DNA of 63,692 nt, counting the filler, from Dehalococcoidia bacterium (GTDB lineage: Bacteria; Chloroflexota; Dehalococcoidia; DSTF01; RBG-16-68-14): assembly GCA_040882355.1 (NCBI GenBank). It is 4 parts of 4 records of this genome, joined end to end, with 100 filler letters (N's around TTAATTAATTAA, not from the genome) between each part and the next. Parts side by side here need not be neighbours in the genome. Positions count along the whole stretch, not along the records: positions 18,093 to 35,947 come from JBBEBM010000050.1; 3 more parts are not named here. One strand, given 5' to 3'. Each line of letters begins with the position of its first letter. The stretch's first letter is position 1. Positions 12,526-55,110 of this stretch are shown one piece after another. Position numbers and translations under genes: made by a program. The notes under the pieces were generated by a model. That model did no database searches. It was not told where the DNA came from and was given only the letters and a program-made list of their open reading frames with translations.

Positions 12526-12547
12526 GAAGGCCAGGCTTCAGCCTGGC
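12526..12547 (+). repeat. GAAG-tagged REP-like palindrome
   Basis: GAAG-GCCAGG-CTTCAG-CCTGGC. Confidence 0.6.
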
Positions 12548-18110: not shown

Positions 18111-19427
18111 ATGGCTATGATGTTACCAATGGCGACCTCAGAGGACAGGATCACCGGCTCCATCTATCCGCGGCAGATCATCGGAGACGTGAGCGGGCAG
18201 CGCGAGCCCGGGCTTCTCTTTGTTCTCCAGCCGATCAATCCTGATTTCACGAAGGTTCTCGGTGCGATCAAGGCGGTAGGCAAGACCAAAGGGCTGACGG
18301 TCCGCCGGGCCGACGACATCAAGAAGCCTGGGGCGATCATGTCACATGTAGTGGAAAGCATGTGCCGCGCCGATGTCGTCGTGGCGGACCTCACCAACCT
18401 AAACCCCAATGTGTTCTACGAGACTGGGATCGGCCATGCGATCCGTGAGGACATGATACTTCTGACGCAAGACATCGAATCGGTGCCCTTCGATCTCCGG
18501 CATCTGCGGCTGATCGAGTACAAAGGGGACCGCCTGGCCAAGCTCAGGGCGAATCTCGGGAACATGGTCGACCAAGTTCTCGCCCTTCCTCCAGACCTTC
18601 GCTGGCCGACACCGCGACAATCCTCTCCCTCTCGATCGACCGATGCCGACGAGCTGCTGACGAGTCGCAACCTGGCAGACATCACCAAGGAGAACTTCGG
18701 CAGCAACCCCGATAGTCAACGCCTGGCAGTGCGCGAGAGGGAATGCACGGTAGACTGCCGAGCCTTCGTGGTGATGTCCCTGGTCCCGTCGTTTTCGATC
18801 ACAATCGATCATGACGGGCTTTGGCACTGGATTGAATCGCGCCGGGCGCGCGTCGACGAAGGAAGTCCTCTCGCGGGTCAAGATGTGCGGCCGCGCGGAA
18901 GTGATGTTGTGATCCGAAGGAAGGCAACCAGCGAATCGGCAGCTAATCAGCTAGCAGGCTACACGCTTGTCCAGCAGTCCGGGTACATCGAGTGGGGGCG
19001 CGCTCTTGGGGGCTGCTACGAGGACATCTGTGTCATTCGACTCACGCCGCTAATGGTTGCCGTGAGGAGCCTGACTAATTTTGGGCTGAGCGTGGCATCG
19101 CAGTTTGGGTGTAGGTATTCCGATCTGGTGGTATCCATCCCGAATGCCGGCGGCACGGTGCTGAGTCACCTTGGGAAGGGATGGCGGGAGCCCTGGCGGA
19201 AGGAGTTTGGAGAACGGTATGCGCCCACCTGCGAGGACCCGCACATCCAAATCCGCTATGCGATGCCGGAGGACGAGGGCAAGATAGACGAACTGCAGCG
19301 CCAGCTGGACGTGCGGCTGAATCGTCTATACGGCTCAGACGTGGGCAGAGCCTTCAACAATGAGCGTCACGGCAATCCTAACGAATTGAATCCGGAGCTC
19401 GTCGGGTATGACGCGTGGGAGCCCTAG
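18111..19427 (+). CDS. Nucleoside 2-deoxyribosyltransferase/TIR-like N-terminal domain fused to an unknown C-terminal domain
   Basis: FVLQP...RRADD...ADVVVADLTNLNPNVFYETGIGHA...PFDLRHLR.IEY; codon usage looks atypical; start uncertain near contig edge. Confidence 0.75.
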   Translation: MAMMLPMATSEDRITGSIYPRQIIGDVSGQREPGLLFVLQPINPDFTKVLGAIKAVGKTKGLTVRRADDIKKPGAIMSHVVESMCRADVVVADLTNLNPNVFYETGIGHAIREDMILLTQDIESVPFDLRHLRLIEYKGDRLAKLRANLGNMVDQVLALPPDLRWPTPRQSSPSRSTDADELLTSRNLADITKENFGSNPDSQRLAVRERECTVDCRAFVVMSLVPSFSITIDHDGLWHWIESRRARVDEGSPLAGQDVRPRGSDVVIRRKATSESAANQLAGYTLVQQSGYIEWGRALGGCYEDICVIRLTPLMVAVRSLTNFGLSVASQFGCRYSDLVVSIPNAGGTVLSHLGKGWREPWRKEFGERYAPTCEDPHIQIRYAMPEDEGKIDELQRQLDVRLNRLYGSDVGRAFNNERHGNPNELNPELVGYDAWEP

Positions 19428-19463: not shown

Positions 19464-19655
19464 GAAGCTGAGGGTTTTCAACCCACACACACACACAAAG
19501 CAACCTCACACGCCACACACAAAGGGTCCCGTCTGCGGGATGAATCCCGCAGCTTCCAGGGGATGGACCGTCCGCGACTGCGGAAGAGAGCCGGCGTCGC
19601 CCTCTCGAAGCTGAGGGTTTCCAACCCTCAGACGCACAACCACCCTCGAACGTCC
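19464..19655. repeat. Left array of alternating GAAG-tagged palindromes
   Basis: GAAG-ctgagggttttcaaccc (19464, +), ctgcgggatgaatcccgcag-CTTC (19533-19556, -), GAAG-ctgagggtttccaaccctcag (19607-19631, +). Confidence 0.85.
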
Positions 19656-19663
19656 ATGACCTC

Positions 19664-20050
19664 TCACACATCGTGCCGATGCGGCCTTTCGCGCTGCGTG
19701 CGGATGTAGTTGCGCACAGTATTCACCTCGGACTGTTCAATCCGCCGCCATCCGTATCCCTTCTGCCAGAATGAGTCGTGGCCGAGATCCAACTTCAGAT
19801 CCGGGCACCTGACGAAGATCGCGCGTGCGCTGGCTCCCTTGAGCTGGTGCATCGCCGAGGGCAGCGTTCGTTCGCCTGTCAGGCGAAGCAGCAAGTGAAC
19901 ATGATCGATAGACGCTTCCACCGCCATCATCTGGATGCCGGTTCGTTGGGCGATATCGCGCAGGATCTCCTTGATGTCGTCACCGACCTCGCCCTCAAGC
20001 GCGTTCGAGCGGCCCTTCGTGCTGAACCAGACGTGATATATGCGTTCCAT
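19664..20050 (-). CDS. tnpA: IS200/IS605-family Y1 (HUH) transposase, probably REP-associated (RAYT/TnpA-REP-like)
   Basis: YHVWFSTK.R, DHVHLL (HUH), LKGASAR, FWQKGY, YIRTQ catalytic Tyr; no tnpB; flanked by several palindromes. Confidence 0.88.
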   Translation of the reverse strand: MERIYHVWFSTKGRSNALEGEVGDDIKEILRDIAQRTGIQMMAVEASIDHVHLLLRLTGERTLPSAMHQLKGASARAIFVRCPDLKLDLGHDSFWQKGYGWRRIEQSEVNTVRNYIRTQRERPHRHDV

Positions 20051-20066
20051 GGGCTGGAGTTCCATT

Positions 20067-20190
20067 CTGCGGGATAAATCCCGCAGCTTCCAGGAGATCC
20101 AGCCTCGGCTACTGCGGATGAGCGCACACGCTACCCCCTTGAAGCTGAGGGTTTTCAACCCTCAGACGCACAGGCAACCCTCCAGCGTCC
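20067..20190. repeat. Right array of alternating GAAG-tagged palindromes
   Basis: ctgcgggataaatcccgcag-CTTC (20067-20090) and GAAG-ctgagggttttcaaccctcag (20141-20165); imperfect direct repeat of 19533-19655. Confidence 0.85.
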
Positions 20191-20389
20191 TGCTATGCCA
20201 CCCACCCCTTCGCGCTCTCGCCACCACGCCCTATCCTCATCCTCGACAACCCGGTTCGGGCACGGGGCGCCATCGCTGGCAGCGTCAGATTCGCCGCTCA
20301 AGCGCCGCAAGCCCCGGTCCGCCCGAAAAAGGCGATTTTGCAAAACGTACTGACACGAAACGCGCGGTAGAGGTTCGAGCACAGAAGGC

Positions 20390-22043: not shown

Positions 22044-22436
22044 GACAGAAGCCAGGATGCGCACGCGGCGGCGGGGGAGTGGGCCAATGACTCAGAATTC
22101 GGGATGCGATGCTGGGGAGTGTGCCCGCAACGACAGAAGCCAGGATGCGCACCCGGTGGCGGGGAGTGGGCCAGTGACTCAGANNNNNNNNNNNNNNNNN
22201 NNNNNNNNNNNNNNNNNNNNNNNNNNNNNNNNNNNNNNNNNNNNNNNNNNNNNNNNNNNNNNNNNNNNNNNNNNNNNNNNNNNCGAGAGTGGTAGTAACG
22301 ACAGAAGCCAGGATGCGCACCCGGTGGCGGGGAGTGGGCCAGTGACTCAGAATCCGGGATGCGATGGGGTGGCGAGAGTGGTAGTAACGACAGAAGCCAG
22401 GATGCGCACCCGGTGGCGGGGAGTGGGGATGCATCC
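22044..22436. repeat. Tandem array of 88-89 bp units spanning a scaffold gap
   Basis: gacagaagccaggatgcgcac starts at 22044, 22132, 22300 and 22389; Ns at 22184-22283. Confidence 0.9.
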
Positions 22437-22595: not shown

Positions 22596-22696
22596 CGTGA
22601 TTCCTTCCCACCCACACGCCCTAGAATTGTTGGAGTCCGGGGCACACTCCCAGACCCCCGGCAGAGGGGCCCAGCCCCTCTGCACTCCCCGATCTC
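22596..22696. mobile_element. Divergent MITE-family core
   Basis: ttcccacccacacgccc...cccagacccccggcagaggggcccagcccctctgcactcccc resembles the core of 36335-36478. Confidence 0.55.
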
Positions 22697-26979: not shown

Positions 26980-27003
26980 CTGCGGGTCTGAAACCCGCAG
27001 CTT
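26980..27003 (-). repeat. Orphan copy of the tnpA-flanking palindrome
   Basis: ctgcgggtctgaaacccgcagctt resembles ctgcgggatgaatcccgcagcttc at 19533 and 20067. Confidence 0.6.
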
Positions 27004-27087
27004 TTACAGACCGAGCTGTCTTGTGGATCCCTGGCAGCTCTGCCAGGACTGGCGATTTGGGAGCGGCGAGCGGTGTCAGGGCAGCGA

Positions 27088-55006: not shown

Positions 55007-55110
55007 GTAGCCGAGGCTCTCCAGCCTCGGCTGCTCGTTACGGCGGGATCGCCGCACGGCGACGAAGATGCCGTGCCAGCTCAACTCCGAAGGCCACGCT
55101 TTAGCGTGGC
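55007..55110. repeat. Two REP-like palindromes around a duplicated gene tail
   Basis: GTAG-ccgaggctctccagcctcgg (55007-55030) and GAAG-gccacgctttagcgtggc (55089-55110). Confidence 0.65.

Follow-up and report, generated by a model that had tools for sequence, protein, structure and literature searches.

The locus at positions 19464–20190 of a 63.7-kb stretch of Dehalococcoidia DNA (hereafter the window) was analyzed in this study, which revealed a single gene, tnpA, encoding a Y1/HUH transposase among inverted hairpins that carry the tetranucleotide tag GAAG and recur elsewhere in the genome. We consider it probable that this locus is a system like the REPtrons, in which a family of repetitive extragenic palindromic (REP) elements accompanies a REP-associated tyrosine transposase (RAYT), here built on an enzyme of the IS200 class. 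The reading draws on the anatomy of the locus, the copy numbers of gene and hairpins, the class of the enzyme, the pairing of each enzyme clade with its own hairpin, and the conservation of the places at which sister genes lie in the chromosome.

The source genome (G000) is a draft of 3.33 Mb in 82 contigs, with 67% G+C and 93.9% completeness. The window consists of four of these contigs joined by runs of N, and the locus lies on contig C50 (adding 18092 to a C50 position gives the window position). Counts of the gene and hairpins are lower bounds, because the draft is 94% complete and contigs assembled from public runs break at GAAG hairpins; such contigs end at 19531–19559 and 19605–19634.

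The tnpA locus and its dispersed hairpins

The tnpA open reading frame (ORF) begins at an ATG at 20050 on the minus strand and encodes an intact protein of 128 amino acids (aa). Pfam Y1_Tnp matches nearly its full length with 94.3 bits, and the protein passes the NCBIfam IS200 model NF033573 (85.9 bits; cut-off 55). Its motifs are DHVH, with HVH at residues 50–52, Y115-IRT-Q119 (YIRTQ), and a W motif reading WQ. The best matches in the PDB, 2XM3 (E 3.6e-22), 2XMA, 2XO6 and 2FYX (range 4e-22 to 4e-19), are labeled "transposase" or "transposase, putative", and we take them to be TnpA of the Deinococcus ISDra2 type; ISHp608 TnpA follows at E 1e-6. When aligned to the 2XM3 transposase, H50-V-H52, Y115 and Q119 fall at catalytic positions. 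Judged by sequence, the protein is of the IS200 class and not of the RAYT class, in keeping with the IS200-like YIxxQ active site of the original prediction, an earlier reading made from this DNA alone. That reading also called the system tnpB-less, and PF07282 has no match anywhere in G000.

The gene is single-copy: tblastn yields one full match in the 82 contigs, and multiple near-identical copies were not found. A Pfam scan of the six-frame translation gave five Y1 matches, the other four scoring far lower than tnpA; three of these (on C32, C24 and C48) proved RAYT-like on translation, and the fourth lies on contig C60.

Two hairpin types surround the gene in the order A-B-A-[tnpA]-B-A, with tnpA on the minus strand (Table 1), and the coordinates and order originally predicted for these elements and the gene all proved correct. 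Type A has its GAAG on the plus strand, followed in the two intact copies by CTGAGGGTT-TYC-AACCCTCAG. Type B, read on the plus strand as CTGCGGGAT-(G/A)A-ATCCCGCAG and then CTTC (19533–19552 and 20067–20086), represents such an element on the minus strand. Each of the two direct repeats flanking tnpA, 119 nucleotides (nt) long and 80% identical in a repeat search of the window, is a doublet of inverted GAAG-tagged hairpins. When folded as single-stranded DNA (ssDNA), the intact hairpins are more stable than shuffled sequences (z −3.5 to −4.0), with a weaker value for the degenerate first copy, and each 114-nt doublet unit retains both of its terminal hairpins.

Table 1. Features of the tnpA locus and one related solitary hairpin, in window coordinates.
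Feature	Position	Strand	Evidence
REP type A with degenerate 3′ arm (GAAG-CTGAGGGTT-TTC-AACCCAC...), then a CA-rich run replacing the arm	19464..19488	+	nhmmer E 2.7e-4; weak fold, z −1.95
Left REP doublet (REPIN-like): hairpin B, CTTC, ~50-nt spacer, GAAG, hairpin A	19527..19645	.	Repeat of 20061–20179 at 80%; homologous doublets on C78 and C63 (76–79%); ssDNA fold with two terminal hairpins, z −3.9
REP type B (own strand GAAG-CTGCGGGA-TTCA-TCCCGCAG)	19533..19556	-	Profile E 5.5e-10; fold
REP type A (GAAG-CTGAGGGTT-TCC-AACCCTCAG), 32 nt beyond the tnpA stop	19607..19631	+	Profile E 2.3e-9; fold
tnpA, intact 128-aa Y1/HUH transposase, IS200 class by sequence (H50-V-H52, Y115, Q119)	19664..20050	-	Pfam, NCBIfam, PDB, tree
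Right REP doublet (REPIN-like)	20061..20179	.	Direct repeat of the left doublet; ssDNA fold, z −4.3
REP type B (own strand GAAG-CTGCGGGA-TTTA-TCCCGCAG), 16 nt ahead of the tnpA start	20067..20090	-	Profile E 9e-9
REP type A (GAAG-CTGAGGGTT-TTC-AACCCTCAG)	20141..20165	+	Profile E 2.6e-8
Solitary dispersed REP of the same family (own strand AAAG-CTGCGGGT-TTCAG-ACCCGCAG)	26980..27004	-	Profile E 1.1e-7

A profile built from 31 copies found 38 hairpins in G000 at E < 0.01, distributed over 23 contigs. The unit is approximately 45 nt long and comprises a pyrimidine-rich lead of ~12 nt, (G/C)GAAG, an 8–9-bp G+C-rich stem, an asymmetric loop (TTCA, TTYCA or TTTA), the second arm and, usually, ACG; it is longer than the GAAG palindrome first described. 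Because the loop is asymmetric, each copy has a direction, marked by tag and loop. The main stem forms are CTGAGGGT or CTGCGGGA/T, and the variants (CTGAGGGT/ACCCTCAG, CTGCGGGA/TCCCGCAG, CTGCGGGT/ACCCGCAG and CTGCGCGT/ACGCGCAG) show changes compensated on both arms. As predicted, the tag differs from the canonical GT[AG]G and is conserved, with G, A, A and G present in 32, 34, 31 and 35 of 35 aligned copies, respectively. Although crude calls assign 78% of the genome to coding sequence, 30 of the 38 copies lie outside these calls and only eight inside (binomial p 2e-13). G000 contains 22 occurrences of the exact pattern GAAGCTGNGGGN{6,7}CCCNCAG, 14 of them forward and 8 reverse, versus a single one for a control read backward; the GAAG hairpin pattern exceeds chance. 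No run of T follows these hairpins.

The commonest compound form is the doublet, which on one strand reads hairpin-CTTC, ~50 nt, GAAG-hairpin, with the tags inward; this is the layout of the REPINs (REP doublets forming hairpins). Besides the two in the window, doublets are present on C78, C63, C15, C29 (two) and C70. A 134-nt doublet query matched through the spacer on C50 (81%), C78 (78.5%) and C63 (75.9%), giving four doublets with homologous spacers (76–81%), and the ~119-nt unit has therefore been copied whole. On C61 (locus L015, 314–892), one GAAG type-B REP is embedded in each of three tandem 193-nt repeats (93–96% alike), together with the tail of the upstream gene and a GTAG-CGGCGACC-TTCA-GGTCGCC hairpin.

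TnpA clades and chromosomal sites in relatives

Forty genomes from the window's own order were searched (41 with G000), plus 191 genomes from other orders of the class. The tnpA protein is matched in 19 of the 40 relatives, with one to three matches per genome. A separate protein search of species genomes returned three loci, all from Chloroflexota, a number insufficient for mapping the family more widely; two of the three appear to duplicate loci of the present set. Altogether 24 TnpA loci were inspected for hairpins with perfect stems of at least 7 bp. Every one of them has a G+C-rich hairpin near the ORF, within ~45 nt in 23 cases and 61 nt upstream in L007, and 18 have hairpins on both sides. 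In 15 of these 18, a hairpin with a TGAA-type loop and the complement of the tag stands ~16 nt before the start, and the tag with a TTCA-type-loop hairpin stands ~17 nt after the stop, so that one element is present at both ends of the unit in opposite orientations. L007, L019 and the window locus depart from this rule; in the window locus, the nearest hairpins point the opposite way because each side carries a whole doublet. The minimal unit in relatives is compact: hairpin-CTTC, ~16 nt, tnpA, ~17 nt, GAAG-hairpin.

The TnpA proteins form six clades in the tree, and stem and tag change with the clade. The GAAG clade, to which the window's gene belongs, has the stem CTG[A/C]GGG (CTGMGGG). The tag is xGAG with the stem CCGCGGGTT (CCGCGGG) in a second clade, CAAG/GCAG with CTGCAGG in a third, and CAAG/CATG with CCGCG[C/G]AC (the CCGCGSAC clade) in a fourth; xATG accompanies CCCCGGG in one further clade and CCCCAGCC in another. 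The CCCCAGCC hairpin occurs in 2–18 copies in all eight genomes with its clade, in four of the 32 other relatives, and not at all in G000, which has no such gene. TnpA paralogs within a genome are just 36–51% identical in all eight pairs, and no clade is therefore duplicated in any of the 41 genomes. A GAAG-clade gene is present in eight relatives, full-length in seven and in fragments in G015, and all eight contain the GAAG pattern; the seven full-length genes are, like tnpA, flanked by GAAG/CTGMGGG hairpins. The core GAAG hairpin is identical between genomes whose TnpA are 47–61% identical. Counting TnpA of any clade, the GAAG pattern occurs in 17 of 19 relatives with a match versus six of 21 without. 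Bona fide GAAG-REPs were identified in 23 of the 40 relatives of the order versus two of the 191 genomes from elsewhere in the class; by these sequence searches, the family is restricted to one order.

Flank comparison identified a clade-specific conserved site for four of the six clades. The site of the GAAG clade, seen in four genomes of three families, has pyrK on one side and a small kinase-like gene on the other; that of the CCCCAGCC clade is conserved in seven genomes of two families, and those of the xGAG and CTGCAGG clades in two genomes each; the CCGCGSAC and CCCCGGG pairs showed no common site in this comparison.

In the window's family, the kinase–pyrK site shows several states. G011 has the full unit (hairpin-tnpA-hairpin-hairpin), G000 retains a gene-less doublet on C78 as a relic, G003 and G007 each have a single hairpin, and in G001, G008, G009, G012 and G014 the site is empty, the two genes lying 0–16 nt apart. 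The G000 doublet thus occupies the position of a relative's tnpA unit, in agreement with the original prediction, where tnpA stands in for one linker. Doublets appear to derive from the hairpin-CTTC, ~16 nt, tnpA, ~17 nt, GAAG-hairpin unit and lack its gene. Such a series could have arisen if an old insertion was lost, as by recombination between hairpins in direct repeat, or if a favored site gained and lost insertions more than once. The type-B hairpin of the C78 doublet (locus L014, 2567–2616) carries a loop insertion of ~30 nt that is itself partly palindromic.

Other tagged hairpins, neighboring genes and repeats

A canonical RAYT is encoded on C32 (locus L010, 1368–2160): it is 154 aa long, contains HVHALIV...YVHNNPV and scores 105.1 bits against the NCBIfam model REP_Tyr_transpos (cut-off 80). 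Five GTAG-tagged REPs of the type GTAG-CCGAGGCTTTCCAGCCTCGG (CCGAGGC stem) flank it, and at least 14 such hairpins occur across the genome, one of them within the window at 55007–55030. Two long-type RAYT-like genes, on C24 (L012, 1198–1734; 178 aa) and C48 (L011, 1150–1791; 213 aa), share NH[VF]H ... WQRNYYE ... YI(E/R)(N/D)NP and score 78.7 and 56.6 bits, just below and well below the same cut-off. Hairpins with a TTYA or TTYCA loop number 29 with GTAG and 32 with GAAG in G000. The original prediction knew of no REPtron in this lineage; this has to be withdrawn, as the genome itself contains the C32 gene with its GTAG REPs, and GTAG repeats are listed in Chloroflexi by Di Nocera et al. (2013; PMC3733652). 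That text sorts tagged palindromes into GTAG and CGTC super-families, and GAAG is absent from it.

A further GAAG-tagged family, type C (GAAG-GCCAGGC-TTCA-GCCTGGC), is represented in the window at 12526–12547 and 55089–55110 (stems GCCAGGC and GCCACGC), at ~14 sites in G000 and in 10 of the 40 relatives, where it is often "double-footed" (GAAG...CTTC with an 11-bp stem). We rejected it as a demonstrated part of the tnpA system: it occurs in G001, G008 and G014, in which no tnpA was detected, it is missing from five relatives with a GAAG-clade gene, and it is often double-footed. Of the distant copies in the original prediction, the one at 26980 is a member of the tnpA-associated family, and the hairpins at 12526 and 55089 are real and GAAG-tagged but belong to another stem family whose spread does not follow tnpA. 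The palindrome GGGCGGGTCTCAGACCCGCC supplies the commonest non-homopolymer 16-mers in G000 (23–24 counts, both strands); homopolymer 16-mers of G or C count 130 and are probably an assembly artifact.

Upstream of the locus, a gene for a 438-aa protein (18111–19427) has no Pfam match and one weak paralog in G000 (44% over 75 aa, C30), and nothing corresponding to its region was seen in the relatives' loci that were compared. On the other side, a short dispersed repeat (20316–20368) lies just upstream of a PHP-domain gene, and its 16-mer AAGGCGATTTTGCAAA occurs 10 times in the genome. Six public runs from three studies contain the locus, none of which is recorded as RNA. The four that were compared came from a single study, all as assembled contigs. 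No contig of these four runs bridges a deleted tnpA or doublet, which bears neither way on mobility or expression, and the junctions listed fall at a different repeat, 20197–20368. Over 20316–20368 the summed contig depth in the sediment runs is ~10 times higher and many contigs join into other contexts; depth in these runs is a per-contig figure that is unusable as copy number. A pair of palindromic repeats (CTGGGGGGTGTCCCCCCAG and CAGGGGGCAGCGCCCCCTG types) is found at 22662–22682 and recurs on at least 15 contigs, in many cases where a contig ends; its copy in the window adjoins a masked stretch (22184–22283) and repeated ORF segments.

Competing explanations, known systems and significance

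Several observations weigh against a REPtron-like system. By sequence the enzyme stands outside the RAYTs: it reaches only 35.8 bits against REP_Tyr_transpos (NF047646; cut-off 80), and RAYT structures are absent from its PDB matches at E ≤ 0.01. A tree was built from the 24 Dehalococcoidia TnpA, seven named plasmid-borne IS200-family transposases, E. coli RayT and the RAYT-like proteins of G000. A long branch (97/97) places all 24 TnpA on its IS200 side and separates them from E. coli RayT and the G000 RAYTs; the seven references form their own group (95/81), the tree leaving its place relative to the Dehalococcoidia clades unsettled, and tnpA is 28–35% identical to the references listed. The label RAYT-like given to the locus originally therefore suits its REPtron layout and copy-number behavior and not the sequence class of its enzyme.

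The hairpin family is also small, with ~40 copies, all such counts being minimum figures from a draft assembly, and most relatives hold only 1–9 exact copies. Its commonest flanking 16-mer occurs nine times, the 95th and 99th percentiles in control non-coding windows being 8 and 17, an abundance that is only borderline because the family is divided into stem variants; the REPIN-bearing RAYT groups for which Bertels et al. (PMC5581495) give this measure reach 57 and 140, far above this value. The doublets, at 76–81% alike, are old copies, and nothing therefore indicates recent movement. The link between gene and hairpin is loose, as the GAAG pattern also occurs, in up to nine copies, in 15 of 32 relatives without a GAAG-clade gene. 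Such copies may be relics, may be served by sister clades with near-identical stems, or may reflect incomplete assemblies; among the 15, some carry sister clades with stems one base away, and others are 71–83% complete.

The position of the gene adds to these points. The flanks of tnpA in the window are common to none of seven relatives' loci (L002–L008), nor to nine loci with a homologue of the neighboring PHP gene, whose nearest homologues (60–61%) are in another family and have no neighbors in common. The window's gene and the GAAG-clade genes of G009, G007 and G024 occupy four separate sites without common flanks; with four of the eight genes at different sites, the gene must have moved at times. 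At the kinase–pyrK site, G006 has only a degenerate hairpin and G011, of the same genus, has the full unit, a picture that an insertion sequence (IS) would equally give. Comparison among relatives thus yields occupied and empty states at kinase–pyrK and no comparable site for the window locus. The term "domesticated", applied to this locus originally, is only partly borne out: it suits sister genes that hold conserved sites across families, the window's copy lies at a site common to no relative searched, and at kinase–pyrK presence and absence vary within one genus.

The chief competing explanation is an ordinary, still mobile IS of the IS200 group at low copy number, with the hairpins as its ends, the solitary hairpins and doublets as miniature derivatives (resembling miniature inverted-repeat transposable elements, MITEs, or palindrome-associated transposable elements, PATEs) or as excision scars, and nothing domesticated. 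We regard this as unlikely. It accords with a protein that passes the NCBI IS200 model and clusters with the seven named IS200 transposases, with the compact minimal unit bounded by two hairpins in relatives, with GAAG-clade genes at no fewer than five different sites, and with kinase–pyrK states that run from full unit to empty within one family and differ between two genomes of one genus. Peel-and-paste excision, as in IS608, is seamless, which also suits such an element. IS608 and ISDra2, however, use both ends on one strand, whereas in 15 of 18 loci here tag and loop show the two ends to be inverted. An IS of this kind would further have to be reconciled with none of the 41 genomes having two copies of one clade and with within-genome paralogs as divergent as given above, with sites common to three families (GAAG clade) or to seven genomes of two families (CCCCAGCC clade), and with a ratio of hairpins to gene of ~38:1 in G000. 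IS200 proper averages 4.8 copies at 99.4% identity (Quentin et al., 2018, Table 1; PMC6006769).

Alternatively, the GAAG hairpins might be moved or maintained by one of the RAYT-class enzymes of G000 (C32, C24, C48), the IS200-class gene having simply inserted in their midst. G000 does have three RAYT-like genes and numerous tagged hairpins (the GTAG and GAAG sets with TTYA/TTYCA loops), and ISs are known to insert into REPs, one example in the literature being ISPpu9 (PMC8450116). The C32 RAYT is flanked by GTAG-CCGAGGC hairpins of its own and not by GAAG, though, the GAAG-clade tnpA of seven other genomes again has GAAG/CTGMGGG hairpins at other sites, and the sister clades have their own stems and tags, all of which makes this scenario very improbable. 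We give equally little credence to the hairpins being selected host elements, such as RNA stabilizers, protein-binding sites or terminator-like structures, beside which the transposase lies by coincidence. A core hairpin that stays identical across genomes with TnpA only 47–61% identical, the extragenic location of the copies and their presence in relatives without a GAAG-clade gene would be expected of host elements; yet the coincidence would have to be repeated in every one of six TnpA clades and with a different hairpin each time, the hairpins lack a following T-run, and the homologous doublet spacers at different sites imply that the unit was copied.

The REPtron-like reading that we prefer finds its closest parallels in the REPtron and REPIN–RAYT systems, namely E. 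coli TnpA-REP (RayT) with its Y and Z REPs and bacterial interspersed mosaic elements (BIMEs) and the REPINs of Pseudomonas fluorescens. Common to both are a single-copy Y1/HUH gene, inverted tetranucleotide-tagged palindromes arranged as doublets, dispersal of the same palindromes extragenically, a REP family of its own for each enzyme clade, and sister genes at conserved sites. The two differ in that the enzyme here has the Y---Q of the IS200 class, whereas the RAYT motif is of the Y-x-x-N-P type; the tag is GAAG instead of GT[AG]G, copies number tens instead of hundreds, and this tnpA copy is not at a conserved site. On account of its sequence class and tag, tnpA is not a RAYT by membership. 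Several REP subtypes at one locus are a further likeness, A and B here and Y and Z2 in E. coli (main text of Quentin et al., 2018; PMC6006769).

With the IS200 group (subclass 1.1 of Quentin et al.; IS200F, IS200S, ISDha13 and the 2XM3 transposase), tnpA has in common a core-only protein of ~130 aa, DH[VI]H and Y---Q, hairpins near both ends and no need of TnpB. It departs from subclass 1.1 in having one copy per clade per genome instead of a mean of 4.8 near-identical ones and a W motif WQ instead of W[TS], the subclass values being those of the main text (PMC6006769). A C-terminal R-[PL]-x-[RK]-[HY] after Q is specific to the present family relative to the IS200 references. Hairpins lie 15–18 nt from the ORF in this family versus ~65–146 nt upstream and mostly 80–112 nt downstream in the named references, except for one hairpin 7 nt downstream in the Pseudanabaena reference. 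The present ends are inverted by tag and loop and gene-less hairpins far outnumber the gene, unlike in the IS200 group; the contrast between direct and inverted ends comes from the IS608 and ISDra2 literature, since hairpin orientation is unreadable in the seven named references, whose loops are 3 nt long or whose hairpins are absent.

PATEs and MITE-like elements such as Nezha are gene-less units derived from multi-copy, active ISs of the IS200/IS605 type. The doublets resemble them in keeping hairpin ends and, at kinase–pyrK, in taking the position of a tnpA unit; their parent gene, unlike those multi-copy active ones, exists in one copy and keeps a fixed position in sister clades. Subclass 1.2, described in the main text of Quentin et al. 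(2018; PMC6006769) as related to IS200, low in copy number, not IS-like, generally without terminal hairpins, without REPs and found in Cyanobacteria and Bacteroidetes, is likewise near IS200 by sequence, with DH[IV]H, WQ, low copy number and divergent paralogs. Its Y---Q--HH signature is absent from tnpA, which reads Y-IRT-Q-RERP-H-R-H (YIRTQRERPHRH) with H at other positions; most relatives' TnpA have a single H or Y after Q, mostly as R-P-L-R-H or L-E-K-Y. Hairpins are moreover the rule in the present family, and the phylum is different. Neither GAAG-tagged REPs nor IS200-class enzymes in a REPtron layout turned up in our literature search; the supplementary tables of Quentin et al. (2018), which cover atypical REPs of some subclasses and may bear on the point, lie outside its scope.

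By analogy with IS608 and ISDra2 TnpA and with E. coli TnpA-REP, one may propose that the enzyme binds the hairpin, that GAAG guides it to a cleavage site, that the system is active today and that the host may benefit. Y1 enzymes act on the template of the lagging strand. A dimeric enzyme would bind the folded hairpin on ssDNA, and the four nucleotides at its 5′ foot (GAAG) would serve as a guide by pairing with the cleavage site. Y115 would form the covalent link, and cutting and rejoining would take place next to the hairpin with H50, H52 and Q119 as the metal site. GAAG reads the same backward, and its complement and reverse complement are therefore both CTTC; owing to this symmetry, the inverted partner hairpin offers CTTC on the same strand ~50 nt away. 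This CTTC, or the conserved ACG after the stem, would be a candidate cleavage site. Gene-less hairpins and doublets would as a result spread genome-wide while the gene stays at one copy.

A wider proposal is plausible, although we lean slightly against it: in one Dehalococcoidia order, IS200-class transposases (class 1 TnpA-Y1) may have been tamed repeatedly into REPtron-like systems, as six single-copy clades with their own tags and stem families (GAAG, CAAG, CATG and others, with a TTCA-type loop), four of them at their own sites over family-level time and beside canonical GTAG RAYTs. They would then represent both a living intermediate from IS to REP/RAYT and an independent second route, in which doublets can be seen to arise by loss of tnpA from a hairpin-tnpA-hairpin unit.

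REP elements and RAYTs are thought to descend from IS200-like ISs, and the RAYTs described are already distant from IS200 in sequence. The present enzyme is still of the IS200 class, yet its genomic behavior is that of a REPtron, with one gene, inverted tagged hairpins, gene-less doublets and conserved sister sites, and it is thus a possible, testable intermediate between IS200 and REP/RAYT systems. Automatic annotation pipelines would call such genes "IS200/IS605 family transposase" and overlook the hairpin family. The six enzyme–hairpin pairs, with their differing tags and stems, form a natural set for studying how Y1 enzymes read a guide tetranucleotide and a hairpin, and the canonical GTAG system in the same cell permits a direct test of whether the two systems stay separate.

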